In this document: positions 188 through 37,775 of the stretch, piece after piece
Layout: the number at the start of each line of letters is the position of its first letter
Numbering within the stretch: the first letter of the stretch is position 1
Origin: Candidatus Uhrbacteria bacterium
GTDB lineage: Bacteria > Patescibacteriota > Patescibacteriia > JACQRZ01
Direction: 5' to 3'
Length of the DNA stretch: 64,000 nt
Assembly: GCA_016206155.1 (NCBI GenBank)
Contig: JACQSC010000001.1
Span: 5,105 to 69,104, forward strand
Made by a program: the position numbers and the translations under genes
Notes under the pieces: generated by a model
What the model was told of the DNA's origin: nothing
Seen by the model: the letters and a program-made list of their open reading frames with translations, nothing else
Database searches by the model: none

Positions 188-724
188 ATGCTTTTTCCTG
201 GTCACGCGGCAGCAGGATATCTGGTAGGGGTGGGTATTGTTGCGCTTACAGCGTCTCACCCGGACAGCACGTCGATGTTTTTATGGATTGGCGCTGTTTG
301 TGGTGCGATGCCAGACATCGATATGTTTGCCGCATTTGCGCGCACGCGCTCGCTTGTGATAGAGAATGAGAAACAATCGCATCGAGCATATATCACTCAT
401 ACGCCGCTGTTTTGGGCTGTCATGGCTTTTTTTATGTTTCTTGCAAGCCGTAATGCGCTGTTTGCGCTTATTGTCTTGCTTGCTCCACTGAGCCACCTTT
501 TTCTTGACTCGCTCGAGGACGAGATCCAATGGCTGGGCCCCTGGTCAAAGAAGGGCTACCGGATATTCAAAAGCAGAAAAGACCTCGCCGTTCCGCGGCA
601 TGACTTTTTTTCTTTTTGGGGAAAGTTTTTATTCTGGTATTGGACGAACCGTCGCCTCACGGCGGCCTTGGAAATAGCGCTTATCGTTTCAGCGCTGTTG
701 ACAGGATTTCTCGCAATTCGTTGA
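188..724 (+). CDS. membrane-bound metal-dependent hydrolase-like protein (DUF457/YdjM-like)
   Basis: 178-aa polytopic hydrophobic ORF; Gly/His-rich N-terminus with a PDID motif; family assignment is tentative. Confidence 0.4.
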   Translation: MLFPGHAAAGYLVGVGIVALTASHPDSTSMFLWIGAVCGAMPDIDMFAAFARTRSLVIENEKQSHRAYITHTPLFWAVMAFFMFLASRNALFALIVLLAPLSHLFLDSLEDEIQWLGPWSKKGYRIFKSRKDLAVPRHDFFSFWGKFLFWYWTNRRLTAALEIALIVSALLTGFLAIR

Positions 725-2027
725 TGGGCAGTGCAAAGCCAATGTTTTCTGAGCCAATGACGGTTGCGACATTGACACCCACGGCGCGACCGGCAAAGTC
801 AAGGAGTGGACCGCCGGAGTTTCCCGGGTTAATCGCCGCGTCTGTCTGAATAACGTTTTCAAGTTTTGTAACAGCGCCATCCGTATCTTTTGCGTTGATT
901 GTCCTTTTTAGTCCCGATACAATACCGACAGAAATAGTATTACCAAACTCGCCCAGGGCGTTGCCGATTGCAATAACGCTTTCCCCAAGGCGGAGATTGT
1001 CAGAATTGCTGAGAGGAATGACCGGGTATCCGCCATCGGCGATTTTTATAATCGCGATGTCATGGTCGGCGTCGCGATAAAAAACCTTAGCCGGCTTCTG
1101 CGTACCGTCAGAAAGGAGCGCGGTATAGGAGGCCTGGGTGTCAGCGACAACATGCTTGTTTGTGACAATATAGCCATCTGGTGTCGCAAAAAAACCTGTT
1201 CCAGCTCCGACCTTCTTGCGCTCTACACCTTTTTTTTGAAAAACAGGCACGCGAACGTCGACTCCTTTAAGTCGTGGATCATTTTCAAAGGGGTTAACCA
1301 GAACGCGCTCAAGAAGGGGAACATCTTTTGATACAACAACGGAAACAACCGCCTTAGATGCCGCTTCAACGATCTTTGGCAAGACCTCTTCACGCGATCC
1401 TTCTAGAAGACCTCCTTCTTGTCCTTTTAGTCCATTGATTTCACTGTTGAGCGTTGCAATATGGCCTTCTAGCATTTTTACGGCGCCCTCAAGCGCGGCG
1501 ATGCGATCTTGGAGCGGAGCGTCGGCCTTGAGCGTGGAAGACTCAAGGCGAGAGACCGCTGATGGGGAAATTGCCTCAATGTCTGCATTTTTTGCGCCAA
1601 GCCCCAACTCGCGCATGACGCGAAACGCATCATTAGGCCGACCGAGAAAATACCGCTTCAGGTCGTTCGGATTGATATACCACGCCTGTCCCTGATCCTC
1701 AACTTGTAAGACGATTGTTCCGGCAAGACGTCTGGCAAATGCCGGATCTCCTGCAATTTCATCTGATTTTCCAATACGCGCAAGATCGCGGTTAGAAATG
1801 CCAAGGCCGAGGTCACGCATGATGCGAAACGCATCGTCAGGCCGGCCGAGAAAATATCGTTTGAGATTCTTGGGATTGACATACCACGCTTCGCCGTTTT
1901 TCTCTACTTGTAGGAGGATGCGTCCGGCAAGGCGGTTTGGCGTCGCAGCCGCAGCGTCGCGGGGATCATGGAGAGATCCGGATAGAATGAGAAGGAGCGC
2001 CGAAAAAATGAGAAGTGAATTTTTCAT
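681..2027 (-). CDS. S1C trypsin-like serine protease (HtrA/DegP-like, no obvious PDZ) with signal peptide and N-terminal duplicated ~55-aa GEAWYvNP..KRYFLGRP.DAF domain
   Basis: Catalytic triad contexts TNKHVV, DIAIIKI and GNSGGPL; N-terminal signal peptide; two tandem repeats followed by a coiled-coil segment. Confidence 0.8.
   Translation of the reverse strand: MKNSLLIFSALLLILSGSLHDPRDAAAATPNRLAGRILLQVEKNGEAWYVNPKNLKRYFLGRPDDAFRIMRDLGLGISNRDLARIGKSDEIAGDPAFARRLAGTIVLQVEDQGQAWYINPNDLKRYFLGRPNDAFRVMRELGLGAKNADIEAISPSAVSRLESSTLKADAPLQDRIAALEGAVKMLEGHIATLNSEINGLKGQEGGLLEGSREEVLPKIVEAASKAVVSVVVSKDVPLLERVLVNPFENDPRLKGVDVRVPVFQKKGVERKKVGAGTGFFATPDGYIVTNKHVVADTQASYTALLSDGTQKPAKVFYRDADHDIAIIKIADGGYPVIPLSNSDNLRLGESVIAIGNALGEFGNTISVGIVSGLKRTINAKDTDGAVTKLENVIQTDAAINPGNSGGPLLDFAGRAVGVNVATVIGSENIGFALPINELREILSTALKR
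1600..1960. repeat. intragenic tandem duplication (~205-nt period) encoding the two GEAWY-domain copies of the protease
   Basis: Two DNA blocks (~1610-1745 and ~1815-1950) align with more than 70 percent identity. Confidence 0.6.
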
Positions 2028-9282: not shown

Positions 9283-10920
9283 GTGCTACAAAGAAAAGGT
9301 ATTCACGCTTCTTTTTTTATGCTTACCCCCGAAGAACGAAAAAGAATAGAACCGTTTGTCACGAGCCTTGATGCCGATGTGTTTGGGTTTCAAAATCTAC
9401 CGTCGGTGATCTCTGGTGCGTTGTTTGGCCGCTATAGCCGGTCTGAGCTTGGCGCGCGTGAGCTTCTCTCTCGCGAGTTTCTCGGAGAAGGTCAGGAATT
9501 CCGCGATGCGCTCACCGGCGAACTCAATCTTGGCGGCATGAAGATTGATCCCGCAAAGGCAGAAGGTTTTTTTAGCCGTGTGCTTGACCAGTACGGCGAT
9601 GATTCCGTTGCAGAGCTTGGCGGTACGGCACTAGCGGTTGAGAATGTATCCAATGTTTTGGCAAAGATCATCGAAGATCGCCGCATCGGACTATCACCGC
9701 TCGAGAAGTCGTCGCGGTATGTGCGTTTTGACCGGAGGGATGAACAGGGGAATTATCCGTATGTCATTGATCCCGCTATTGATGCGGCTGGTTATGGTGA
9801 ACTGTATAGAACAACCATGAACATGCTTTTTGATACCTACAGCGCGCTTCTTGAGCCGTTGATGGAAGAGCTGAACGTTCGTTTTCCAAAAAAAGAGGAT
9901 CAAAGCGATGGCGCATACCGCGCAGCGCTGCGCGGACAGGCATGCGATGTTGTGCGGTATCTTCTACCGATGGGAACCAAGACAAATGTGGGATTGGTCG
10001 GGAACGGTCGCGCATTCGAATACCTGATGTATAATCTTCGCGCCAGCGGACTTGCGGAGGGAGCGCGTATAGCAAAAGAAATAGACGATGCGCTCGGATT
10101 TTTGATTCCGGCATTCGTCCGCCGAGCAAAGACCGATCGCGGGCAGGGGAATGTGGACTATCTCGCATCGCTTTTTCAAAAGCAAAAAGAGTTCTCCTCC
10201 CGAATCGCTACCAATACAATGAAGGAACGTGAACATGAGGCAACAGTCCGCCTTATCGAGTACGATCCGCAGGGAGAACTCAACGTTGCGGCCGCGCTAT
10301 GTTACGACCATTCCGACGGATCGTACATACAGACAAAAGAATTTTTTGAGCGAACACCGGAAAAGGCAAGCGATCTCATTGCCGATATTCTTTCACCGCG
10401 AAAACACCGGACACACAAGCCGCCGCGCGCTTTTGAGCATGCACGGTATCTTTTTGAAATTACCTGCGACATTGGGGCGTTCCGCGACCTGCATCGCCAT
10501 CGCATGCTGACTCAACAACGACAGCAATACACAACGCTTCACGGCTATGCGATACCTCAAGACATTAAAGATGCGGGAAAAGAAGGGGAGTACGCGAAAG
10601 CCATGGAGCGGGCGGCGGACGCATACGAGATAATTGGGCGCGACCTTCCACTTCAGGCGCAATACTGCGTGCCGTTCGGATTTCTCATTCGTTTCCTCTT
10701 CCGTCTTAACGCGCGCGAGGCGTACCACTTGTGCGAGTTGCGCAGTACGATTCAAGGCCATCCGAGCTATCGTTATGTGGCGCAAGAGATGGCGCGGGAG
10801 ATTGCGAAGGTGCATCCCAACCTCGGCAATGGCATGATGGTAACATGGGAAGGGTATGATGAGCTTGCCCGCGTCGCGTCCGAAATGCGTCAGGAACAAA
10901 AGGCTCGCGCGCGAAAATGA
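9283..10920 (+). CDS. ThyX-like (flavin-dependent thymidylate synthase family) protein, divergent
   Basis: RHR-containing motif (HRHRMLTQQRQ) and ARxxLPxGT-like segment (CDVVRYLLPMGTKT); the serine positions of the canonical ThyX motif are substituted. Confidence 0.4.
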   Translation: MLQRKGIHASFFMLTPEERKRIEPFVTSLDADVFGFQNLPSVISGALFGRYSRSELGARELLSREFLGEGQEFRDALTGELNLGGMKIDPAKAEGFFSRVLDQYGDDSVAELGGTALAVENVSNVLAKIIEDRRIGLSPLEKSSRYVRFDRRDEQGNYPYVIDPAIDAAGYGELYRTTMNMLFDTYSALLEPLMEELNVRFPKKEDQSDGAYRAALRGQACDVVRYLLPMGTKTNVGLVGNGRAFEYLMYNLRASGLAEGARIAKEIDDALGFLIPAFVRRAKTDRGQGNVDYLASLFQKQKEFSSRIATNTMKEREHEATVRLIEYDPQGELNVAAALCYDHSDGSYIQTKEFFERTPEKASDLIADILSPRKHRTHKPPRAFEHARYLFEITCDIGAFRDLHRHRMLTQQRQQYTTLHGYAIPQDIKDAGKEGEYAKAMERAADAYEIIGRDLPLQAQYCVPFGFLIRFLFRLNAREAYHLCELRSTIQGHPSYRYVAQEMAREIAKVHPNLGNGMMVTWEGYDELARVASEMRQEQKARARK

Positions 10921-22343: not shown

Positions 22344-22571
22344 ATGTATACCTGGGACTACAACCTGCCGAAAAACTGGAAACCGCAGACCCGCGATGAA
22401 TGGGTGTGGTTTCTTGAGCGCAAAATACATTATGATGATTGGAAGGGGGTGCGTCCGTGGATGCTAAAAAAATATGCCCGCGCGCTCAAACTCGATCCGG
22501 CAAAACGGCTCTTTGTTGGCGCATATCTCGATCGCTATGGCAAAAAAATCGCAATTCAAGCTGACCAATGA
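22344..22571 (+). CDS. hypothetical 75-aa protein (possible partner of the downstream nucleotidyltransferase)
   Basis: Trp-rich small ORF overlapping the next gene. Confidence 0.3.
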   Translation: MYTWDYNLPKNWKPQTRDEWVWFLERKIHYDDWKGVRPWMLKKYARALKLDPAKRLFVGAYLDRYGKKIAIQADQ

Positions 22572-23226
22572 GCAGAAAATTATTCTGCAGGTTCTTGCAC
22601 AATCACCGCTCCGCAAGCGCCTCTATTGGACTGGAGGGACGGCGCTTGCGTATTTTTATCTTCACCATCGAGGATCGTACGACGTTGATCTCTTTTCTGA
22701 TACGCAATTGGCTTTGAGCGAACTGTTGCCGTTCGCGCGCGATGCCGCAGAAGCGCTATCGCTCAAAAAGTTTGAACCAAAGAGAATTCACGACCGTTTT
22801 GAGTTTATCTTTACCAATGGGCAGGAGACGCGTCTTGATTGCGTGTGGTATCAATTTCCCGCGCTCAAAAAGCGCAAAGAATGGGAGGGGATTTTGGTTG
22901 ACTCATTTGAGGATATGGTTGCCAATAAAACAATCGCGCTCATGGAACGGCGAGAGGGGAAGGATGTTTTTGATATATACACGCTGTTAAAAAAAAAGCT
23001 GATTACGGTGCCCTCTCTGCTTGAACTGGTAAGAAAAAAATTCGGTGCCGGTATCCACGAGGAAACAATCTTGGCAGACGGGCTTCTTGCATGTAATAAA
23101 CTGAAAAACATTCGGCCAATGCTTTTTGGCTCTGAGAAGGAACAAGAAAAGCAAGTACTTGATGTCGTGAATTTTTTCAAGGATCATGCGGCGCAGCGAC
23201 TTCATTCATTAATTGAAGATCTATGA
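22537..23226 (+). CDS. AbiEii/DUF1814-like nucleotidyltransferase (putative type IV toxin)
   Basis: NTase motif WTGGTALAYFYLHHRGSYDVDLFS. Confidence 0.5.
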   Translation: MAKKSQFKLTNEQKIILQVLAQSPLRKRLYWTGGTALAYFYLHHRGSYDVDLFSDTQLALSELLPFARDAAEALSLKKFEPKRIHDRFEFIFTNGQETRLDCVWYQFPALKKRKEWEGILVDSFEDMVANKTIALMERREGKDVFDIYTLLKKKLITVPSLLELVRKKFGAGIHEETILADGLLACNKLKNIRPMLFGSEKEQEKQVLDVVNFFKDHAAQRLHSLIEDL

Positions 23227-26377: not shown

Positions 26378-26609
26378 TGTCACTATATACCACGACTTAC
26401 AGCAGGCGCGGGGGAAACGGTGACTGTCCCCGTTTCTACCCCGTTTCTACGACGGCTTATGGTTGAAAGAGTTATGCACAGCCGTTGCTTCTTGACGCCG
26501 TTTTTATCTGCTATACTGGTGGCATGAGGAAATTTTTCTCTCACATTTTTTATTCATACACACGGTGAAGACGCGTAAGTCTTCATTTTTATTTATGTCA
26601 AGAAACACT

Positions 26610-29600
26610 ATGACAAGAAAAGCGCATGCGTTCGTCTCAAAGGTCCTGTATCCGATAACGATTGCGTCAATGGTTCTGTGGTCCTTGGGTCCGGCGGCGT
26701 TTCCGGTGCCGGCATACGCGGCAATCACCAGAAACGAGGCTGTAGCGCTTGCGACAGGCGCTCAGAGCCTCGGTGTGTCAAGCAGCCCTACGGCGGTTTT
26801 TGGCTTGAACCTTAATATAAGCGCCGGAGAGACATTTTCCCGCGCGCGGGTGGTTATTGATCCAAGCAATAGTTTTGATCCATCAGGAGACCTGGCGGCG
26901 ATTGCGCCCGGCGCCACATCTGGCATTGAGCTATATGACGACGCCGGTGCGACAAGCGGATCATTTGATGCGACCGATCAGGCAATTATCAGCAATAATT
27001 CCATTATTCAGAATCCGCGATTTTCAAAATTAGCGCTTGGCGCCAATATTCTGACACTTGATCCAAACGTTGACACCACCCTTCCCTATATGCAGGGACA
27101 GCTGGTTTTTGCAAACGTGACGGCAAATGCGGCTTCAACAGGGGCTTATGCGTGGCACATCGTGACGGCGAACGGAACGGGAACCGGGGCGGGAACGACA
27201 TTGCGCCTTGACGGGAACACAACCGCCGCGCCGACCTTTTTGGCAAGCTCCCGTCTATCCATGATTGATACGCCTGCGTTTGGGAGCGGTTCGTTTACCA
27301 TTAATGGAACGTCAAACACAACCACCTATGCCTCAACGGCCGCAACCGCGTCGCTTGGTGATATCATTTATTATCAGACAGGTACAACGGCCGGACGCTG
27401 GGGGGTCGTAACTACGAATTTTAATGTAACGGCAGCTTCGGTGAACGGCGCAAATCTTGCGAATGGTACGTACAAAATAGCAAAATTTCCGAGCATTACA
27501 GGTTCATTTGTCGTTCCTGCAAGCGGCAGTTTCACGCCGACTGGTGCATACGGAACGACGACAACGCCCGTTGTCGGTGATCTTGTTCTTTTCCAGCAGG
27601 GAACAGGCGATGCGCGATGGGGCATGGTTACAAACAATACGTTGTCGGGGGGTTCATTTGCCATTAACGGTATGACGCTTGCGGCAGGAACCTATCGGAT
27701 TAGCACCCTTGATACAAGCGGGGGAAACCAAATGGGATTCCAAACCGCGCTCATGAACAACACCTCAATGTCAATGGCGTTGGGCGAACTTTCATTCGTT
27801 TTGACAACACAGAATCCTGCAGCGACTGATTATGGCTGGCACATTACAACTACGGGAGCAACGGGTGTGAGTGGCGCCGGCGCAGGAACGTTGCGGCTTG
27901 ACAATGCAACAGCTGCTCCAACATACGGATGGACCGCATCACTTGTGCCAGATATCGCACAAGCAGTTGCCGCAGATGAGCTCGGCGCGAACGAAGGAAA
28001 TGATTACTTTGTCGCAATCCGAACATCTGCCGGCGCGCAAAATGGACGGGCAGTTCGATTTATCATGAATCCTGGTGATATTGTGTTCAGCGCAAACACG
28101 CCCACCACAACGCCAACGCTTGTTTCCTCGCCGACCTATACTGTCTCGACAACCGCCCAGCAGTCGCAGTCGGCAGGGGCTAACACTACGGTCATGGACA
28201 TGACCAACGGATTTTTGCGACTGAAACAAAGCAGTAATTTTAAGGCAGTTGCGCGTGTTCAGTTTGGCAGTACCGATGCAGCAAAAACCCTGACATCCAT
28301 TGCGATTTCTTTTGCCACTGCAAACAGCACAACGCCGACGTGGACCGCAAGCGCGGCAACATCATCTGAACTCCTTGATCTTGCCGCAACCGGTGGAGGT
28401 ATTTCACTGTGGAAAGACGGCGGATCGCCCGGATTCGGTTTGAATGGCGCAGGCGATACGCAAGTGACACTTGCGGCAAGCCCGGTATATGGCGCAAGCA
28501 ATGCCTTTACCATTACTCCTGCAACAGCGCCGACCATCGCGTCGGATGATGTGTACTTTATCGTACTGAAATCCGATACGTCCGGTGTGACAAACAATAA
28601 TGCGTTTACCGTGAACATGGCAACAAACGCAATTACTACAAGCGGTACATCGCCGACAATCGGCGTATTCTCAACACCGCCGATTGCCATGGATACCACC
28701 GCGCCGACGATTGCAAGCGTATCTGACGTTCCCGGACAATCAACGAAGTTGAGCGTTCGATTCAGCGAGCCGGTGCAGAAAATTAACGCGGCCGGAGCAC
28801 TCACAACAACTGATTTGACCTATACAAATGACGCAACAGACGGATCAGGACGGACCGTGAGCTCGATTTCCCATAATCCGGGCGCGGATATTGCTGAACT
28901 CACCATGAGCGGCGCGCTTGTGGCCGGCGATTTTGACGGAACGCCGTCATCTCTTGCCGCCGGAACAAGTAAGATTGAGGATATGGCGGGCAATGTCATG
29001 GGAACAACAGCGCGCAATCTTGGCAGTCCCCTGATCATTACAACCTCGGTTATTCCTGCGACGTATGTCGGATCGGTCTATGACGCCACAACGCCGCTTG
29101 TCACATTTGCGGCATCCGGCGGAACAGGAGCAAAGACATTTTCAGGAAATACGCAAGCAGATACAGACGCGCTTGTCGCGCTTCTTGGCGCAAGTCCCCT
29201 TGCCGGGGCTACGGGAAAGCTCACGGGTACGGTTCAGCAAAATACCGCAGGAACCAGGAATGTGACGATAAAGGTGACCGATGGCGTAGCCGCAACAGCA
29301 ACAAAACAATTTACGATTAATGTCGCTGCAACGCAAGGAGGCGATGTTCCAGGATTGACAAATGTCACGCCGCCGTCAGGCTCGCAGGGCGCTACAAACC
29401 TATCAGTCGCCATCACCGGCACGAACACAAGCTTTACCAGCGCCAGCGCGGTTGCCTTTCTATTGAATGGAACGGCCGACACCAATATTACAGTCGGAAC
29501 AGTTACCGCAAATAGCGCAACATCCATAACGGTTCCCGTTACAATTGCGGCGGGCGCGGCAACCGGCAGTCGTGATGTGCGCGTGACAACCGGCAATCAA

Positions 29601-32600
29601 GTAGTCATTATGCCAAGCGGATTTAATGTCACCGGCGCGGTCGCGGCAGGGCTCAACCTTGTGTTCCCGACTGATTCGGCAACAGGCATTCAACTGCCCC
29701 AGCCGGGATTTAATTTTAATCCATCAACAAATACCACATTCACTCATTATCGCATTGTATTGAGCGCAACTCAGGATTTTGCAACGGCGCTGTGGAACTA
29801 TGTTTTTCCAAAGCCGGATACGCTTGGCACGAACGGAAGCCATTGCAGTGCGACATCGTGTAATGTGAACTATTCAGCGGGAAATTTTCTCACAATCACT
29901 CCCGCTTCGACGCTCACATCAAATACAACCTACTACTGGAAAGTTGAAACCTATCAGGATCCAACACCGACAACGCAGTTCGCGTCTACGGATGTCATTG
30001 AGCTGAACAGGCGGGAAAACACGCCGGTGCGAAGTTTTACAACCTCGGCTTCTGTGACGGATGTTCAGCCGCCGCAAATAGAACATCGTCCAATTGTTCA
30101 GGCGCGCGCAAACGCGGTAGCTACCGTGTACGCGCGTGTACTAGACAATGTTGCAAACGCGAACACAACGCCTGCCCTTGCCACAACATTGTCTGCCTGT
30201 GCCGGTACCGGATGCACGCCTTCGACATCAACACTGCCAAGCGCAAGCGCGACTGATGGCGTTGTCGCCGGAACGCTTGCGCAGAACGGATACTATAGTT
30301 ATGTTCTTCCCTCCGCGTTTATTACCGCGACTGTCGGAACGGTTGTGCGGTATTATATCACCGCTTCTGACGGTACCAATACGAGCAATTTTTATCAGTC
30401 GGGCGGGACAACGCCGTTTCAGTTCACAACTACGGCGGCTATCGCAACCAGCGGTGTCACGATTACCGGTACGGTAAAAGATACCAGCGATACGTGCGCC
30501 ACCGGCGTGCAGGGCGCGCTTGTGTTTGCCGAAGGGAGCGGGTTCAGCGCGACAACAGGCGCGGACTGCGCCTACACACTGGGTGCGGCAAATAACGGAT
30601 TGGCCGTAGGATTCCCATATGATCTTGTTGTCGCGAGGGATGGATACTCAACCCAGCGGAGAGATGCCGTTTTGGCAGGGTCAACAAGCGTTGCGGTCCA
30701 ACTGGGGCAGGGCGCTACCGGCGGTTTTGGTGGAGATACCACACGGCCCCGTGTACTGCGCTCAATGCCCGGTGACAAGATGCAGAATATGCCAGGAAAT
30801 GATTCAAACATGAGGATTTTGGTTGTGTTTGATAAACCAATGAGCCAGTCGTCGGTATTGACAAACGGCAACATGGTGGTCAATTCCGTGAATGTTCAGA
30901 CAGGGGTTCTTACAAACATTACCCCAAACGGATCATGGGCATATTACTCAACCTATACCATGCCGTTTGGCGGGACAGAATCAAATGTCGCGGTATGGTC
31001 GTTTACCGGCACAAATACATTCGGTGACAACAAGACCATTGCCGTAAAAGTGACGCCGAGTGTTACTGATTCATCAGGGAATGCAGTGCAGGGGAACCTT
31101 ACTGACGGGAGTTATTCGTTTTCGTTCACAACCGGATCAACCGCAACATCCGTTGGTTTTAACACGGCAACCGGAACGTTTGCCGATGGCGGAGTGTTCG
31201 GTCAGGGTCAAAATATCGCGCCGCACGTGACGACCACTGCGCCGTCCATGGGTTCGCCAAGCGTACCGCGCAATACGAAAATCATGATTAATTTCGACAC
31301 CTCAATGGCCGATGATGCCGCTGGTACGTATACGCTTGCAAGCGCGGTGAAGCTGTTTGAGGTGTCCTCGGCAGGCGCCGAAACAGACGTCACATCATCG
31401 GCAATAAACGCCGTCACGCTTACATCTGATAAAATGGCCGCAACTGTTACACTGAAAACAACCTATCCAAGCGCTTGCACAGGCGCGTCCTGTGGCGTGT
31501 TTAAGGCAACCACCCGTTATCGCCTGAAGGTGCTTGGGTCGGCAAAAGCCGCAAATGGCATGACCATGCGCGCCCCGGGACAGGAAACGCAAGTGGCGTT
31601 TATGAGCGACTTTACAACATCCGCGTCATCCGACACGGTCGCGCCAACTATTGTCGGATCTGATCCGACGACGAACGCGACCGACGTTCCCTCGATGCTC
31701 GGGTCTGTGAGCGTGTCATTTGATAAGGATATGGATTCCTCATCGCTTACGACTTCAACGATGACTCTGACGACCGGCTCAACAGCGGTTACTGGAACGG
31801 TTGATTATCGACCGATGGAGCGAACCGCGTATTTTATTCCTTCGCGCGTTTTGACGCCGACAACGCAATACACGCTCACTCTCACTGCGGGGGTTCGAGG
31901 AATCAATGGCACGGCAATTGCGGCGGCAACGCGCGCGTTCACAACCGGATCTGCCGACACGTCCGCGCCTACTGTCACATCACTGACCGCGGATGACACA
32001 AACATCTCAATATCATTCAGCAAACCGATGAACTCATCGCCGGCAACCGATACGACAAACTTTACGTCAAGCGTATTGCGTGTTGCCAGCTACACGGTGA
32101 AATACGGAACAGCAGGGTTCAACGCGGCAACTGCGGGTACAACGCTTACACTTCCAGCAACAGCACAGATTAGCTATGACGGGAAGAACAATTCTGTGAT
32201 GATTTCAGGATACCGCCCGACGAGTACCACTGCGGCACAAGTTCAGGGACAACAATTATATGTTGCGGTTGCAAACGCAAAGGACATCGGCGGCAACGCG
32301 ATTAGCACATCAGGGACTGCTCCGGATACGGCAAATACCAGCCGCGCAACCGTGCAGAATAGCGCGACGACCCAAGGGCAACTTGGGCCGATGACCATTA
32401 CCAATGACATGATGAAGGCGGTTGGTGATTTCAAGCCAATCACATTTTCCTCCGCAACATTCGGATTTGCGCCGCAAACAGAAGTACGACCGTTCAATAT
32501 GATGACCGGCACCACCACAATTTACGGCGTGCATTTGTCTCTCTCACGGCAAATACCGGATGGAGGCGCCATCGTGCTTACCTTCCCGCAAGGGTTTAAT

Positions 32601-35600
32601 GTATCCGGCGCAAAACAGGATATCAACTCTCCGAAACGCCGCGACATAAACGGGCCTGGCACAGGCACGGTCACGTTCAAGTGTCAGACGAACGTCGCGG
32701 GAATGTCGGCGAAATCCTGCGGAGGCGGCGCGGCAAATGCAGATGATACCGGAACCGCGCAAGGCGGCCTTGCCGATGACGGTGTGGTGGTAAACGCCAA
32801 CGCGCGAACCATTACCATTTATGTGAGCGGGGCAACCAATAGCGAAGGACATGATGTTCTTGATTTTGACATCGCGGGCATCGTTAACTCAACCGTTCCA
32901 AAGGACTTCAACACGACCGGCTATACCGTCAGCATCGCGACAAAGAACGGTACGACAAATCTTGAAACACTGAGCTCCGTGCCATTTTTTATCCAGTCGG
33001 CAGGGACTACCACCTATACGCTCACCGGAACGATTACGGCGACAAACAACGATCAAAACGGGACAATATCGGTATTCCTTGACTCGCCGATGACCGGCCC
33101 GCTTGAGGCAACGTCCGCGGATTTTGCCGGCGGGCAAACAGCAACATATTCATTTACCAATCTTCCGCCCGGTGATTATGGATTGAGAACAGAACCGTAC
33201 GTAAAGATTAATGATACGACTGAATTCCTTGGGAAATTTCCTGAGCGTGTGATGATGAGCGCAAACACCGTGCGCAATTTTACGCTCTCAAGCGCAACTG
33301 CCGCAGGCACCGGAACCTCCGTGACCGTTTCCGTAGACGGACCCTCAAGCGAACCCATTGATATTTTCGCAAATGGCCCGGCCGGATTCCGCGTAATGCA
33401 AAAGACGCTTGATACCAATGCCGGCGCTGAAAACTTTACGATTCGCCTGTCAAATGGCGATTGGTTCCTTGGCGTCGGACCGCAAATGCCAAAAGGACAG
33501 ATGTCTGGCCCGCCGCCTTCGCCGAGCTATCTCCCGCCGCGGCCGGTCAATATCCGTATTAACGGCGGTGTATGTACCATTGAGGGAACTGAGACGTGCA
33601 CCAAGGCATTCACGTTGACCGCATCAACAAAACAAATACGTGGCGTTGTAAAGGATCTTGCGAATAAAGTTATTGCAAACGCGGAAGTGTATGCGTATTC
33701 TCCCGCGGGAGCATCAATGGGAAACTTCGCGAAAACAGATACGACAGGAACGTTCATCCTGAACATCACCGAAGGCGTATTTAATGTCGGCGCCATGATT
33801 CAGGGTATGCCGCCTTCAAAAGAAGTGCCGGTTGAGGTAACAAGCCACACTACGACCTATCTCAAGATAGACGGAGCCCAAGCAGCGATTAGGCCTGACG
33901 CGGCCGCGACGGCGTTCGTGTTGAAACTCGCAAAGCCTGATTATACGATTTCGGGAAAAGTGACTGACGGAACAAATGTCATCAATGGAGCGTCAGTGTA
34001 TGCGTATAAGCAGGGGGCGCCGGGACACGCAACGGCTCCGACAGATAGCTCCGGCAATTATTCACTCTTCGTGTCAACGGGTACATGGAAGGTCGGGGTC
34101 TTTTTGCCGAAATACGGAAATCTTACGGAACAGACCGTCACAGTCACAACGGCAAATGCGACTGACATCAATTTCTCACCAACAGGAACCGGAACATTCT
34201 ATGCCGTGTCAGGAACCGTGACTGTTGGCGGCGTTGCCCGAGAGGGGGCGCAGGTGCGTATTAAGAACAGCGGCTATTTTAATGACACACGTACCGATTC
34301 ACTTGGCGCGTACAGTTTTAATGTGCCGCAAGGGACAGGATACATTGTTGACGGATTTGTGCCGGGTGTAGGAGAGCTCGCGCCATTGACGGCATTTGAT
34401 GTTTCAGCAGCAGTTGAGAACAAAAACCTTACGGTCGCGACGTTGCGCACCATCACCATGACATTCTCCTCATCGGTGGCAAATGCGTTTGTTGAACTTC
34501 GCTCAACAACAGGATCAAACATTAGAAAGCAGATAAAGAATTCGACAACCGGAACGCTGTCCGCGCCTGACGGGAGCTATATCGTGAATGTCGATCTTCA
34601 GGGCGCGCCGATTCCGTTTACAGCCGTTGCCGCAACTGACGGAAATACAACATACGCAAGCGCAACGGGCGTTGTGACGGTGAATGGCGATGAGGGCCTT
34701 ACGGTTACAGTTCCCACCCTTCGAGCGCTTACCATTACTGTTCAAGATGGATCAAGTGTGGCACTGGCAGATGCATGGGTTGAACTTATGAATCCGACCA
34801 GCGGTGAACATTTCGGAAGCAAAACAGGAACAAATGGTCAGGCAACACTGCGCGCGGCTGACGGCACATACTTTATTAATGCAATGAAACCGGGGTATTA
34901 CCGTGCGCCGACATCGCTTACGGTGAGCGCGAACGCAGCCCAGACACTTACGCTTACGGCAGCGACACGAACCATAGCAGGAACCGTATATATCGGATCA
35001 ACGGGTGCCGCGAATTCGTTTGTACGCGCCGAAAAGCAGGGTGGCGGGTTTGGCGGAGCAATGACAGACGCAAACGGACAGTATACGCTCTCTGTGGCAG
35101 AAGGAATATGGAGAGTATTCGCAAAAGCTGAAGGATATGCGGAAGCGGAACTGAGCGCCACCGTTGATACAACAACCGCATCGGCGACCGGCAAAGATAT
35201 TACCCTTACTACAACCGTTACGGTGTCAGCGCCTAAGTCAAAGCCGATGACGCCGTCAACCGGCGGCAGTATTGAAGATACATCAGCAGGCATTAAAGTG
35301 AATGTGCCGGCAAACGCGCTTGGCAGTTCATCGTCAGCCGGAAACATGCAGGTAAAGAAAACAACGAACTTTACCAAAACAGAAACCGCGCGACCGGTCG
35401 CGGCAGTAGAGATTAGCGCGACTGACGCAAATGGCACGCCGATCAAAACATTGACAGAAAGCGTAACAGTTGAATTGAGTTACACAAAAGCAGAACTCGC
35501 GACAACAGCATCCTCTTCAGATACATCCATTAATACAAAGTCAGAAATTGAAAAACTCGATGTTGGGTTCTGGGATGAATCGGTATCAAACTGGACGACC

Positions 35601-37775
35601 TTGCCAACTACGACTACATATGTGGATTCAGCCGGTGCGGTTGTTACAAGTCCGTCAGAAGATCTTTCAAATGTCGCAAGTGTGAAATTAAGCGCGCTTA
35701 CCGATCACTTCTCCTTGTTCGCGCCGGTAGTCCCGACCGATCCGTCAGCGCCATCAACGCCAACAAACTTCGCGACAGGCACGGCGACAACAACAACGAT
35801 TGTCCTTGGGTGGTCCGTCGTATCCGGCGCGACCGGCTATAACATCTACCGGAGCACAAGCTCGACAGGAACATTTAGCCGCCTTGGTTCAGAGCCAACG
35901 GTTTCTAGCGGTTCGACTGGCACGTATACTGACAGCGGACTGTCCGCGAGTCAAACGTTCTACTACAAGATTTCTGCGTTGAACAATAACGGCGAATCTG
36001 CCGCGTCTAGCGCCCTGTCCGCAACATCAGCCGCCACAACGTCATCGAGTACAAGCTCTGGGGGTGTTGTCTCAAGTTCGAGCTCTTCCTCACAAACGAC
36101 AACCACCACCACGACAGCAACAGCCATTACCGCAACAAATGTCTCTGTTACCAACACAAACACGGTTGCCGTGGTGACAAAGGGCATAACAGCAAGCACA
36201 CTGGGTGTTTCGGCGATTAACGCGGCCAACCTTGAGGTAAAGCAAACCGGAGCGGCAACAACGGCAACAACGGAAAAGAAGGATGTCGCGGCGCAGCAGC
36301 TCAAGGACATGAAGAGCGTTGATGCGACCGAGAAAAAAGCTCAAGATGCTTTGGCAACTCTCGAGAGTATGGTCACAAAAGGTACGGTCGCCCCTCTCGC
36401 GCTTTCGCAGAACGTGACACGCTATGAGGTAAAAGAGAAGACAACCGGAAAGACCGCCTCGGTTACGCGCGTCGAACAACTGTTTGCGCCGACAAAGGAC
36501 ACCAAAGATGTTACGATTGTGATGACGGTTCCAAAGTCAGTGGCAGAGCGCGCTTCATTGCTTACGTTCACGGGTGTTCAGCCGGAAGTTTTGCAGGATG
36601 ATCCCATCCTTCGCTGGACCTTTGCTGAAGTAAAGGCAGGAGAAACAAAGGATTTGTCCTATCAGGCAAACAAAAATCTTGAGAAGCTTGAAGTAAAGAA
36701 TGTCGCCGTCGCCGCAGTGCCAGCATTCGTAGAGATGGCATGGGGCTTCAAGGATGGCAAATTCCAACTGATGCCAAAGACCGAAGCCGATGCCTTGCAT
36801 GCAGCGGCTGAAGCATCCGCCGCCGCTAAAGCTCCGGCGAGAGAAGAGAAGAAAGCTGAAGTTTCCCTTGAGAAAAAAGCCGCAGCCATGCCGGCAAAAG
36901 CGGCAGCGAAGCCGCTGGTAGCGGTAAAAGCACTGCCACATCTTTCGGCGAAGGCGGCAAAAGTTGTGACCAACGTACTAAAGCGCAGCGCTATCATTCT
37001 TCTGCCTGAGGCAAAGGGAGCGGCCTATTATCTCGACCCAAAGACGCAAAAACGGGCATCCCTCGGCCGTCCTGCAGAGGCATTTGAGGTGATGCGTTCG
37101 TTCGGAATCGGTATCACAAATAATGACCTTGAAAAGATTCCGGAAAGCACCAAAGAGGGCGATACGGCATTCGCCTGTAAGCACGCCGGTAAGATTTTCT
37201 TGCAAGTCCAGGCAAAAGGCGAGGCATGGTATGTGCATCCCGAGAATTGCAAGCGCTACTTCCTCAATCGTCCGGCCGATGCCTTTAATCTCATGCGCAA
37301 GCTTGCGCTTGGTGTCTCCAATGCGGACGCAGACGCGATTCCGACAAGCGAGAAGTCAAAACCGGTAACGCCTGCTACACCGGCGCAACCCGCACAGCCA
37401 AAAGAAGATCCAAAGAAGGCATCAGACAAACTTTCGCCCCTCGCGCGTCCATTGTATAGCGGCATGAAAGGGGATGATGTCAAAACGCTTCAGACCATTC
37501 TTACGCAGAAGGGATACTATACCGGTACAGTTTCTGGCACTATGGACGAGGCAACTTTTACAGCGGTGCGCCAGATGCAGTTAAAAGAGGGTCTGGTGAA
37601 GAGTGTGGCTACTCCCGGGTATGGCACCGTCGGTCCAGCAACTCGCGCATTTGTCAACAAGCTCTTACAAGTGGAGCCCGAACCGAAAAAGGAAACAACT
37701 CCAGCTGCGCCGAAGCAAAGCGAAGGCGAGGGTGAAAGCGCGCTTGATAAGCTCAAGCGACTTATGAAACAGTAA
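26610..37775 (+). CDS. giant (~3.7 k aa) secreted cell-surface protein with Ig-like/SbsA-like, carboxypeptidase-regulatory-like and FN3 domains, a Ser/Thr linker, two GEAWY repeats and a C-terminal PG_binding_1 domain
   Basis: Signal peptide MTRKAHAFVSKVLYPITIASMVLWSLGPAAFPVPAYA; repeated ..APTI.S..P..GATDV blocks; four GxV.D...A..GA.V-type beta-sandwich repeats; FN3 motif (W..V.GATGYNIYRS); C-terminal LYSGMKGDDVKTLQTILTQKGYY..DEATFTAVRQMQ. Start taken at the third in-frame ATG; the annotated 5' end overlaps a hairpin. Confidence 0.85.
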   Translation: MTRKAHAFVSKVLYPITIASMVLWSLGPAAFPVPAYAAITRNEAVALATGAQSLGVSSSPTAVFGLNLNISAGETFSRARVVIDPSNSFDPSGDLAAIAPGATSGIELYDDAGATSGSFDATDQAIISNNSIIQNPRFSKLALGANILTLDPNVDTTLPYMQGQLVFANVTANAASTGAYAWHIVTANGTGTGAGTTLRLDGNTTAAPTFLASSRLSMIDTPAFGSGSFTINGTSNTTTYASTAATASLGDIIYYQTGTTAGRWGVVTTNFNVTAASVNGANLANGTYKIAKFPSITGSFVVPASGSFTPTGAYGTTTTPVVGDLVLFQQGTGDARWGMVTNNTLSGGSFAINGMTLAAGTYRISTLDTSGGNQMGFQTALMNNTSMSMALGELSFVLTTQNPAATDYGWHITTTGATGVSGAGAGTLRLDNATAAPTYGWTASLVPDIAQAVAADELGANEGNDYFVAIRTSAGAQNGRAVRFIMNPGDIVFSANTPTTTPTLVSSPTYTVSTTAQQSQSAGANTTVMDMTNGFLRLKQSSNFKAVARVQFGSTDAAKTLTSIAISFATANSTTPTWTASAATSSELLDLAATGGGISLWKDGGSPGFGLNGAGDTQVTLAASPVYGASNAFTITPATAPTIASDDVYFIVLKSDTSGVTNNNAFTVNMATNAITTSGTSPTIGVFSTPPIAMDTTAPTIASVSDVPGQSTKLSVRFSEPVQKINAAGALTTTDLTYTNDATDGSGRTVSSISHNPGADIAELTMSGALVAGDFDGTPSSLAAGTSKIEDMAGNVMGTTARNLGSPLIITTSVIPATYVGSVYDATTPLVTFAASGGTGAKTFSGNTQADTDALVALLGASPLAGATGKLTGTVQQNTAGTRNVTIKVTDGVAATATKQFTINVAATQGGDVPGLTNVTPPSGSQGATNLSVAITGTNTSFTSASAVAFLLNGTADTNITVGTVTANSATSITVPVTIAAGAATGSRDVRVTTGNQVVIMPSGFNVTGAVAAGLNLVFPTDSATGIQLPQPGFNFNPSTNTTFTHYRIVLSATQDFATALWNYVFPKPDTLGTNGSHCSATSCNVNYSAGNFLTITPASTLTSNTTYYWKVETYQDPTPTTQFASTDVIELNRRENTPVRSFTTSASVTDVQPPQIEHRPIVQARANAVATVYARVLDNVANANTTPALATTLSACAGTGCTPSTSTLPSASATDGVVAGTLAQNGYYSYVLPSAFITATVGTVVRYYITASDGTNTSNFYQSGGTTPFQFTTTAAIATSGVTITGTVKDTSDTCATGVQGALVFAEGSGFSATTGADCAYTLGAANNGLAVGFPYDLVVARDGYSTQRRDAVLAGSTSVAVQLGQGATGGFGGDTTRPRVLRSMPGDKMQNMPGNDSNMRILVVFDKPMSQSSVLTNGNMVVNSVNVQTGVLTNITPNGSWAYYSTYTMPFGGTESNVAVWSFTGTNTFGDNKTIAVKVTPSVTDSSGNAVQGNLTDGSYSFSFTTGSTATSVGFNTATGTFADGGVFGQGQNIAPHVTTTAPSMGSPSVPRNTKIMINFDTSMADDAAGTYTLASAVKLFEVSSAGAETDVTSSAINAVTLTSDKMAATVTLKTTYPSACTGASCGVFKATTRYRLKVLGSAKAANGMTMRAPGQETQVAFMSDFTTSASSDTVAPTIVGSDPTTNATDVPSMLGSVSVSFDKDMDSSSLTTSTMTLTTGSTAVTGTVDYRPMERTAYFIPSRVLTPTTQYTLTLTAGVRGINGTAIAAATRAFTTGSADTSAPTVTSLTADDTNISISFSKPMNSSPATDTTNFTSSVLRVASYTVKYGTAGFNAATAGTTLTLPATAQISYDGKNNSVMISGYRPTSTTAAQVQGQQLYVAVANAKDIGGNAISTSGTAPDTANTSRATVQNSATTQGQLGPMTITNDMMKAVGDFKPITFSSATFGFAPQTEVRPFNMMTGTTTIYGVHLSLSRQIPDGGAIVLTFPQGFNVSGAKQDINSPKRRDINGPGTGTVTFKCQTNVAGMSAKSCGGGAANADDTGTAQGGLADDGVVVNANARTITIYVSGATNSEGHDVLDFDIAGIVNSTVPKDFNTTGYTVSIATKNGTTNLETLSSVPFFIQSAGTTTYTLTGTITATNNDQNGTISVFLDSPMTGPLEATSADFAGGQTATYSFTNLPPGDYGLRTEPYVKINDTTEFLGKFPERVMMSANTVRNFTLSSATAAGTGTSVTVSVDGPSSEPIDIFANGPAGFRVMQKTLDTNAGAENFTIRLSNGDWFLGVGPQMPKGQMSGPPPSPSYLPPRPVNIRINGGVCTIEGTETCTKAFTLTASTKQIRGVVKDLANKVIANAEVYAYSPAGASMGNFAKTDTTGTFILNITEGVFNVGAMIQGMPPSKEVPVEVTSHTTTYLKIDGAQAAIRPDAAATAFVLKLAKPDYTISGKVTDGTNVINGASVYAYKQGAPGHATAPTDSSGNYSLFVSTGTWKVGVFLPKYGNLTEQTVTVTTANATDINFSPTGTGTFYAVSGTVTVGGVAREGAQVRIKNSGYFNDTRTDSLGAYSFNVPQGTGYIVDGFVPGVGELAPLTAFDVSAAVENKNLTVATLRTITMTFSSSVANAFVELRSTTGSNIRKQIKNSTTGTLSAPDGSYIVNVDLQGAPIPFTAVAATDGNTTYASATGVVTVNGDEGLTVTVPTLRALTITVQDGSSVALADAWVELMNPTSGEHFGSKTGTNGQATLRAADGTYFINAMKPGYYRAPTSLTVSANAAQTLTLTAATRTIAGTVYIGSTGAANSFVRAEKQGGGFGGAMTDANGQYTLSVAEGIWRVFAKAEGYAEAELSATVDTTTASATGKDITLTTTVTVSAPKSKPMTPSTGGSIEDTSAGIKVNVPANALGSSSSAGNMQVKKTTNFTKTETARPVAAVEISATDANGTPIKTLTESVTVELSYTKAELATTASSSDTSINTKSEIEKLDVGFWDESVSNWTTLPTTTTYVDSAGAVVTSPSEDLSNVASVKLSALTDHFSLFAPVVPTDPSAPSTPTNFATGTATTTTIVLGWSVVSGATGYNIYRSTSSTGTFSRLGSEPTVSSGSTGTYTDSGLSASQTFYYKISALNNNGESAASSALSATSAATTSSSTSSGGVVSSSSSSSQTTTTTTTATAITATNVSVTNTNTVAVVTKGITASTLGVSAINAANLEVKQTGAATTATTEKKDVAAQQLKDMKSVDATEKKAQDALATLESMVTKGTVAPLALSQNVTRYEVKEKTTGKTASVTRVEQLFAPTKDTKDVTIVMTVPKSVAERASLLTFTGVQPEVLQDDPILRWTFAEVKAGETKDLSYQANKNLEKLEVKNVAVAAVPAFVEMAWGFKDGKFQLMPKTEADALHAAAEASAAAKAPAREEKKAEVSLEKKAAAMPAKAAAKPLVAVKALPHLSAKAAKVVTNVLKRSAIILLPEAKGAAYYLDPKTQKRASLGRPAEAFEVMRSFGIGITNNDLEKIPESTKEGDTAFACKHAGKIFLQVQAKGEAWYVHPENCKRYFLNRPADAFNLMRKLALGVSNADADAIPTSEKSKPVTPATPAQPAQPKEDPKKASDKLSPLARPLYSGMKGDDVKTLQTILTQKGYYTGTVSGTMDEATFTAVRQMQLKEGLVKSVATPGYGTVGPATRAFVNKLLQVEPEPKKETTPAAPKQSEGEGESALDKLKRLMKQ

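Follow-up and report, generated by a model that had tools for sequence, protein, structure and literature searches.

Two secreted proteins encoded in the 64,000-nucleotide stretch of DNA analyzed here (the window) share a small, highly conserved domain of ∼58 aa that appears to be so far undescribed and has no name. It is widespread in the secreted proteins of the ultra-small Patescibacteria, where it comes as an obligate tandem pair, and, as we judge with moderate confidence, it probably serves across the lineage to anchor its carriers non-covalently to the cell envelope. Patescibacteria, also known as the candidate phyla radiation, account for a sizable part of bacterial diversity; to our knowledge, almost nothing is known of how they build and decorate their envelopes or attach to hosts, and a domain present on thousands of their secreted proteins offers a handle on these questions.

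Four repeats in two secreted proteins

The four copies were recovered from ORF translations, two each in a giant surface protein and an HtrA-type protease (Table 1). All four scored 96–116 bits by hmmsearch with a profile built from the same four, and nothing beyond them exceeded 5 bits with this profile in a six-frame translation of the window. Homology to hundreds of database proteins, with E values down to 7e-51, shows that the similarity is not due to chance. An earlier note on this DNA had described the repeat as occurring twice ahead of the PG-binding domain of the giant protein and twice at the N-terminus of the protease; translation bore this out, with Pfam placing PG_binding_1 after G1 and G2 and hmmsearch recovering P1 and P2, and the coordinates it gave (36990–37330 and 1600–1960) lie within about 20–35 nt of the mapped copies.

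Table 1. Coordinates in the window of the two repeat-carrying proteins and their domains.
Feature	Position	Strand	Basis
Giant secreted surface protein, 3,736 aa	26565..37775	+	ORF list; Pfam; N-terminus MSRNTMTRKAHAFVSKVLYPITIASMVLWSLGPAAFPVPAYAA
Repeat G1 (giant protein aa 3472-3528)	36978..37148	+	hmmsearch 96 bits; translation
Repeat G2 (giant protein aa 3536-3595)	37170..37349	+	hmmsearch 116 bits; translation
PG_binding_1 (giant protein aa 3636-3678)	37470..37598	+	Pfam PF01471, above cut-off
Secreted protease gene, 448 aa	681..2027	-	translation; NCBI record MBI4252559.1
Repeat P1 (protease aa 31-88)	1764..1937	-	hmmsearch 116 bits; translation
Repeat P2 (protease aa 97-154)	1566..1739	-	hmmsearch 115 bits
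Trypsin_2 / HtrA-type serine protease domain (aa 276-418)	774..1202	-	Pfam PF13365, E 1.8e-33

The giant protein runs from an N-terminal signal peptide through Big_5, CarboxypepD_reg, and fn3-type Ig-like domains to the repeat pair and a C-terminal PG_binding_1 domain (39.6 and 37.2 bits vs. a gathering cut-off of 23 for PF01471), and a C-terminal membrane anchor is absent. The pair adjoins PG_binding_1, with the Ig-like array toward the other end of the protein, and the PF01471 model does not match the repeats themselves. Of the four copies, G1 diverges most, with LLPE replacing LQVE and GAAYY replacing GEAWY.

The protease, whose NCBI record names Candidatus Uhrbacteria bacterium as its source, consists of a signal peptide, the repeat pair (P1 beginning a few residues past the signal), an Ala/Leu-rich linker, and a protease domain with TNKHVV (His), DIAII (Asp), and GNSGGP (Ser) motifs. 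It shares the Trypsin_2 domain and the His-Asp-Ser triad with HtrA/DegP proteins; however, no PDZ domain was found, the chain stopping 30 aa past the protease domain, the repeat pair lies at the N-terminus instead, and its best NCBIfam matches, HtrA/DegP models at ∼180 bits, fall far below the family cut-offs of 416–470 (180.6 bits for TIGR02037, cut-off 416.2). Orthologs of this protease are not the main carriers of the repeat: its protease region was matched by phmmer in only three of 265 database proteins and one of 83 carriers from genome loci (L016), the latter weakly (E 4.5e-7).

Any two copies share a mean identity of ∼56%, with 0.58 within one protein and 0.56 between proteins. Between P1 and P2, identity is 69% at the DNA level and 68% at the protein level, and since copies within one protein are no closer than copies in different proteins, a recent tandem duplication is ruled out and the two-copy arrangement is ancestral. 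The DNA-level tandem duplication that had been proposed for the protease is thus not upheld, two copies being the family norm.

Neither Pfam nor NCBIfam gave a match at E ≤ 1, whether the repeats were scanned alone or as part of either protein, PHROGs gave only noise on the repeats (E ≥ 0.02), and nine further carriers had no match over the repeats at E ≤ 10; assignment to a named domain was rejected after scans of the repeats and 100+ carriers against these three collections placed nothing on the repeat. Single-sequence and profile searches of the PDB likewise gave only noise and no sequence relative, and nothing relevant was found in the literature on the motif or on a Patescibacteria wall-binding domain. 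The earlier statement that the pattern belongs to no named domain therefore stands, and searches of Pfam, NCBIfam, PHROGs, and the PDB returned no confident match to a well-known domain of unrelated function.

Family size, pairing, and distribution

An exhaustive HMMER search of 1.84 billion representatives placed the repeat in 3,653 protein clusters at E ≤ 1e-3, a lower bound on the number of carrier clusters, and in 2,525 at E ≤ 1e-30. The search for other carriers, suggested earlier as a check, thus yielded thousands, and the module is not private to the protease and the giant protein. Of the 145 new top representatives, 142 had exactly two copies, as did 145 of the 150 listed and 79 of the 83 genome-locus carriers. 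The copies are spaced by 4–20 aa or by a Ca-binding TSP3_bac insert of 57–60 aa. An N-terminal hydrophobic signal was found in 208 of 247 complete carriers, only one of which had another TM-like segment, and the first copy begins a median of 10 residues past the signal. Large proteins can also carry the pair at their very C-terminus, as do 11 of the 145 top representatives, carrier L072, and the giant protein. Many carriers are a signal and a pair and nothing else, and a genome scan with a 6-sequence alignment showed that one genome can hold several carriers.

The named sources of carriers are almost always Patescibacteria. Occurrence outside the group was considered and rejected: entries titled ‘Gammaproteobacteria’ and ‘Bacillota’ seem to be mislabeled, since at many of those loci the flanking genes are shared, at 60–90% identity, with Falkowbacteria/Parcubacteria loci. 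Viral contigs yielded one secreted 211-aa single-copy carrier on two contigs, a 12-residue chance motif, and no endolysin, and tblastn against 50,697 phage genomes found no carrier; fusions to phage endolysins, sought in both collections as a test of wall binding, were thus not recovered.

The partner domains are diverse, unrelated, and all extracellular, led by TSP3_bac (33), Trypsin_2 (10), CAP (9), Transglut_core (4), and NAGPA (3), with SNase, subtilase S8, GH10, C25, cupredoxin, SH3b, LTD, and ComEA-like HHH_3 also represented and Ig-rich giants among the carriers; the repeat is more conserved than most of these partners. In species-representative genomes, 43 of 83 carriers combine a signal and the pair with a NAGPA phosphodiester glycosidase, and the neighbors of such carriers often include a GT2 glycosyltransferase, at 14 loci, and UppS, at 11, a setting that suggests envelope glycopolymer metabolism. 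In the one partner sample scanned as a set, the 25 families listed of the 40 found included no amidase, NlpC/P60, M23, or lysozyme, and no conserved partner gene was seen beside carriers. The genes for the protease and the giant protein do not form an operon, being separated by 24.5 kb that contain housekeeping genes.

The family merits a Pfam entry. It defines a computable ‘surface proteome’ of Patescibacteria, and the repeat itself could serve as a tag for localization or pull-down and as a small target for structural and ligand work.

Predicted structure and resemblance to uL30

AlphaFold2 predicted each repeat of the tandem (pLDDT 82, pTM 0.73) as three strands, a helix, a strand, and a short helix (E-E-E-H-E-H). 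The single-domain model was poorer (pLDDT 78, pTM 0.55) and lost the fourth strand, so the final fold search was run on the tandem model. A four-stranded β-sheet with two α-helices in ∼50–70 residues, as predicted here, agrees with the descriptions of the EccB-repeat/PlyCB-like/Lys170-type fold; solved PDB chains gave no significant sequence or fold match. With the EccB1 repeats of type VII secretion and the PlyCB-like fold, superposition scores were under any accepted threshold at 13% identity, and peptidoglycan binding by EccB1 has itself only been hypothesized. Similarity to the wall-binding domain of the enterococcal phage endolysins LysIME-EF1/Lys170 is weak; the latter multimerizes from separately translated copies, whereas the repeat is a covalent pair and was found on no phage lysin. 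For multimeric wall binding of the kind ascribed to this fold, the relevant observations are the obligate pairing and the better tandem prediction.

By hhalign, part of the repeat profile resembles ribosomal protein uL30 (Ribosomal_L30, PF00327) (probability 49%, P 1.7e-4, 29 columns, 41% identity), with a score of 23.4 that none of 300 column-shuffled uL30 profiles reached (mean 9.5, maximum 16.8). The common part is a β-α-β stretch (KRyyLGRPxDAFxvMRxLGLGItN vs. LKRSvIGRPedqrvTvrtLGLkKTN); the whole ∼55-aa β-α-β-α-β domain of Ribosomal_L30 is not matched. Four carriers bear the independently assigned JGI label ‘ribosomal protein L30/L7E’; PF00327 gave no match on these four at E ≤ 10, and uL30 chains in the PDB reached a phmmer E of only about 1.5. 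In addition, uL30 is a cytoplasmic, stand-alone ribosomal protein, whereas repeat carriers have signal peptides and extracellular partners. The resemblance explains some database mislabels. Candidate-phyla-radiation bacteria reportedly lack uL30, and carriers mislabeled as L30 could mislead analyses that rely on its absence in these lineages.

Candidate role of the pair

Partners that are many, unrelated, and all extracellular form the pattern of known anchoring modules, and a mean identity of ∼56% between copies fits a conserved ligand of the carrier’s own cell rather than a variable foreign one. We infer an anchoring role in which the pair, as the binding unit, would hold carriers non-covalently on the wall or a polymer linked to it. 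It would put the PDZ-less HtrA-type protease onto an envelope layer and, together with PG_binding_1, would make the wall-proximal foot of the Ig-rich giant protein. The likeness to monoderm wall anchors (LysM, SH3b, SLH, CW_binding_1/2, PG_binding_1, SPOR) lies in a small domain in tandem that either closely follows the signal peptide or lies C-terminally, and in its fusion to extracellular enzymes and adhesins of many unrelated kinds that lack any other membrane anchor. The repeat differs, however, in matching none of these Pfam families, in a copy number fixed at two with unusually high conservation, and in partners not dominated by peptidoglycan hydrolases.

Family size, pairing, signals, partners, GT2/UppS context, PG_binding_1 adjacency, conservation, and the tandem model were counted for anchoring. 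As a rule, established wall-binding modules come joined to peptidoglycan hydrolases, and we counted against anchoring that such partners were unseen among the families listed for the partner sample and phage endolysin carriers unseen in the viral contigs and phage genomes. Proteins made of a signal and a pair would be anchors without cargo, which is odd, and PG_binding_1 beside the pair is just as compatible with a ligand of the pair that is not peptidoglycan.

Instead of binding a wall glycopolymer, the pair might dock onto a dedicated envelope protein (an S-layer, pilus, or scaffold, much as dockerin docks onto cohesin) or drive self-assembly of its carriers, which we regard as rather unlikely. 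Very high conservation across all 58 aa is typical of protein-protein interfaces, the tandem is predicted better than one copy, stand-alone signal-and-pair proteins are common, and PDZ-less HtrA proteases require some other assembly element; the nearest structural analogs, the EccB1 repeats and the LysIME-EF1 domain, pack together or form tetrameric rings, but those that oligomerize do so to bind the wall. No conserved partner gene was seen beside the carriers, however, and cupredoxin, nuclease, GH10, and CAP domains share no need to oligomerize. Adhesion to a host or prey surface is less probable still. Patescibacteria are thought to be largely episymbionts that, on this account, would deliver enzymes and adhesins onto the host cell, and hydrolases, proteases, nucleases, and giant Ig-rich adhesin-like proteins are indeed among the partners; yet host-recognition domains normally diversify, whereas these copies keep their identity across many lineages with presumably different hosts, and the pair of the giant protein adjoins PG_binding_1 rather than the distal tip.

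That both window proteins carry the module had suggested co-localization, for example with the protease processing the giant adhesin or with both proteins on one wall polymer. Targeting or anchoring is still the most plausible reading, but a dedicated enzyme-substrate relationship is highly improbable: both proteins are secreted, and anchoring in the same layer could let them meet, but at least 3,653 clusters of otherwise unrelated proteins, with dozens of partners and in some genomes several carriers, imply only a probable common envelope compartment. The distance between the two genes and the single weak protease match, L016, also speak against it.

Also quite improbable is binding of phosphodiester polyanions, either a teichoic-acid-like polymer or extracellular nucleic acid, through a uL30-related β-α-β core, for which the hhalign match above all shuffled profiles, the JGI labels, the NAGPA, SNase, and ComEA-like HHH_3 partners, and a mean net charge of +1.1 per repeat would speak. 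A bolder combination, to which we give little credence, would make the pair the main non-covalent surface-display anchor in much of Patescibacteria, binding a lineage-specific phosphodiester wall polymer with a core derived from uL30; if true, a ribosomal RNA-binding fold would have been exapted for extracellular polyanion binding.

Two secreted proteins of the window share a paired domain

Two proteins of the window, the giant Ig-rich surface protein (copies G1 and G2) and the HtrA-type protease (copies P1 and P2; NCBI MBI4252559.1, Candidatus Uhrbacteria MAG), carry a genuine domain that is used in pairs on the surface proteins of Patescibacteria, is abundant and highly conserved, and has no earlier description. 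A profile built from these four ∼58-aa copies scored them at 96–116 bits, and nothing further in a six-frame translation of the window exceeded 5 bits; thus, the earlier observation of two copies ahead of PG_binding_1 in the giant protein and two in the protease was correct, and the window holds four copies only. The giant-protein copies read SAIILLPEAKGAAYYLDPKTQKRASLGRPAEAFEVMRSFGIGITNNDLEKIP and GKIFLQVQAKGEAWYVHPENCKRYFLNRPADAFNLMRKLALGVSNADADAIP in translation and sit within its last 437 residues, with PG_binding_1 downstream (Pfam, 39.6 bits).

The mechanical start of the giant ORF is a GTG, beyond which the same frame reads MSRNTMTRK... and encodes an evident signal peptide that ends in AYAA. 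Translation probably begins instead at an ATG codon ∼30–45 nt downstream. The protease linker is heptad-like and Ala/Leu/Glu-rich, with a weak match to the DUF7310 coiled coil (E 0.11), and may replace the absent PDZ domains in oligomerization.

Coordinates of the domain copies, their carrier ORFs, and other features of the window
Feature	Position (nt)	Strand	Protein	Description
YdjM-family membrane protein ORF	188-724	+		3′ overlap with protease ORF, 44 nt (681-724)
Protease ORF	681-2027	-	448 aa	Signal peptide, two copies, linker, Trypsin_2 (Pfam)
Protease linker	1410-1541	-	aa 163-206	
Copy P2	1566-1739	-	aa 97-154	Profile search
Copy P1	1764-1937	-	aa 31-88	Profile search
ThyX ORF	9283-10920	+	545 aa	Two Thy1 stretches
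AbiEii-type nucleotidyltransferase toxin gene	22474-23226	+		Type IV toxin-antitoxin
Start region of giant ORF	26496-26700	+		Mechanical start at 26565
Giant protein ORF	26565-37775	+	3,736 aa	
Copy G1	36978-37148	+	aa 3472-3528	Profile search
Copy G2	37170-37349	+	aa 3536-3595	Profile search

Family size and taxonomic distribution

The earlier note did not recognize the domain as a named one, and the searches gave it no name: the repeats had no match at E ≤ 1 in Pfam-A (2025 copy) or NCBIfam 20.0, only noise in PHROGs, and no credible match among PDB sequences, whether searched as a single sequence or as a 20-sequence profile. A full-text literature search for the motif and for any described Patescibacteria wall-binding domain found none. 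The protease repeat pair nevertheless recovered 247 proteins in a word-indexed search (E down to 7e-51), nearly all without a name, the named ones being mostly Falkowbacteria or "Patescibacteria group" and one Elusimicrobiales. With a single-domain profile, HMMER run exhaustively over 1.84 billion cluster representatives returned 3,653 proteins at E ≤ 1e-3 and 2,525 at E ≤ 1e-30.

A scan of one genome per GTDB species yielded at least 592 domain-encoding stretches, with Falkowbacteria, Uhrbacteria, Parcubacteria, and Patescibacteria group among the titles of the matches listed. Several genomes supplied two loci each to the best 80, of which 31 were titled "uncultured Gammaproteobacteria" and one "Bacillota" (e.g., loci L005, L006, L008, L024, L025, L029, L037, L045, and L067). 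These titles are probably wrong, because at many such loci the syntenic flanking genes are 60–90% identical in amino acid sequence to those of Falkowbacteria/Parcubacteria loci. The family is very large and lineage-restricted.

Anatomy, partner domains, and gene neighborhoods

Two copies were present in all 120 listed matches of the word-indexed search (in which the query was itself a pair), in 142 of 145 new top representatives from HMMER, and in 79 of 83 carrier ORFs of the genome loci. The copies are joined by a linker of 4–20 aa or, in about one-third of carriers, by a 57–60-aa insert holding two Ca-binding TSP3_bac motifs (DxDxDGxxDxxE; e.g., proteins P0011, P0023, and P0036 and loci L028, L070, and L079); the length of this insert is strikingly constant across carriers. 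Mean identity was 0.58 between copies within one protein and 0.56 between proteins, and P1 and P2 share 69% DNA and 68% protein identity, values that exclude the local, DNA-level tandem duplication previously proposed for the protease. Copies 1 and 2 do not form separate subfamilies, and the pair is old and under strong constraint.

Among 247 Met-starting carriers, 208 had an N-terminal hydrophobic signal, a median of 10 residues from the first copy, and one had a further TM-like segment. Of 145 carriers, 128 have the pair at the N-terminus, 11 at the extreme C-terminus, and six internally. A rare one-copy exception, a 211-aa secreted protein with a ∼110-aa C-terminal region lacking assignment, is encoded on two putative viral contigs from IMG/VR (L084, 484-1116; L085, 5896-6528).

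A Pfam scan of 97 representatives identified as partners TSP3_bac (33 carriers), Trypsin_2 (10), CAP (9), Transglut_core (4), NAGPA (3), beta-propeller/LVIVD, SNase, DJ-1/PfpI, and CarboxypepD_reg (2 each), and subtilase S8, GH10, peptidase C25, C39-like, PEBP, YHYH, Spondin_N, fn3, CARDB, and others (1 each). Further partners, on small carriers, were cupredoxin, SH3b, lamin-tail, and ComEA-like HHH_3 domains; many carriers consist of the signal and the pair and nothing more. The window protease is therefore a member of a recurrent architecture, Trypsin_2 without PDZ, and the giant protein belongs with the rarer C-terminal carriers; a second Uhrbacteria giant (L072) has the same pair at its end. 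Proteins of ∼410 aa composed of signal, pair, and NAGPA phosphodiester glycosidase (L004, L005, L026, and 40 more) account for 43 of the 83 carriers in species-representative genomes, and their genes are often followed by those for a GT2 glycosyltransferase (14 loci) and the undecaprenyl-diphosphate synthase UppS (11 loci). ThyA, DHFR, and dCMP deaminase also occur in this conserved neighborhood.

Predicted structure and resemblance to uL30

AlphaFold2 modeled the protease tandem region (89-sequence alignment) with pLDDT 82 and pTM 0.73, each repeat folding as strand-strand-strand-helix-strand-short helix. A single repeat modeled less well (121-sequence alignment; pLDDT 78, pTM 0.55, fourth strand absent), an indication that the two copies fold as one unit. 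Foldseek returned nothing at E < 1 against the PDB or viral models, with EccB chains repeatedly topping the PDB list without significance. Published descriptions give both the EccB1 repeat domains and the LysIME-EF1/Lys170 endolysin wall-binding domain a four-stranded sheet plus two helices and have them acting at the envelope in multiple copies (PMC4769845, PMC7098653), a likeness in kind that is no evidence of homology.

Four secreted carriers with signal peptides (P0013, P0032, P0033, and P0038) bear the JGI label "ribosomal protein L30/L7E." Pfam Ribosomal_L30 did not match them even at E ≤ 10, and phmmer placed uL30 chains at E ∼1.5 against the PDB. With a profile of five uL30 sequences (three of them checked against PDB alignments), hhalign aligned 29 columns of the domain (alignment A6) at 41% identity, probability 49%, and P 1.7e-4; none of 300 column-shuffled uL30 controls reached the real score of 23.4 (mean 9.5, maximum 16.8). 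We read this as a real local beta-alpha-beta motif resemblance, which does not itself establish descent and which explains the mislabels. Such labels could mislead studies of which CPR bacteria lack uL30.

Likely role of the pair

Like LysM, SH3b, SLH, CW_binding, and PG_binding, the domain occurs in carriers with a secretion signal and no other anchor, is terminal and of fixed multiplicity, and combines freely with unrelated extracellular enzymes and adhesins. By this analogy, we lean toward the pair being a non-covalent envelope-anchoring module that would bind a conserved constituent of the envelope of the producing cell itself. An own-envelope ligand is favored because the domain is strongly conserved, the dominant NAGPA fusions have glycopolymer-synthesis neighbors, the TSP3 linker, known from OmpA-type wall-binding proteins, is present, and in the giant protein the pair adjoins PG_binding_1 at the foot. 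Counting against anchoring are the numerous "empty" signal-plus-pair proteins, the weak structural matches, the lack of a peptidoglycan-hydrolase partner among the families listed in the 97-representative scan, and the failure to find phage-lysin carriers.

Protein docking or oligomerization by the pair is an unlikely alternative, and host-surface adhesion and polyanion binding on a uL30-like core are each improbable. Least credible, and very improbable, is the dedicated protease-adhesin partnership previously suggested for the window: the module is promiscuous, and 24.5 kb of housekeeping genes separate the two loci. From the shared module the earlier note had suggested co-localization; a common location is indeed what it points to, but not a common pathway, the presence of the domain on both proteins being ordinary for this lineage. 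Modular surface-targeting repeats are already known as a kind; the domain family and its obligate pairing are new, as is probably the fold.

Other features of the window

The YdjM-family and protease ORFs converge. The AbiEii-type toxin gene lies a few kilobases upstream of the giant gene in otherwise housekeeping surroundings. The ThyX ORF is about twice the usual length and may encode a tandem-fused flavin-dependent thymidylate synthase.
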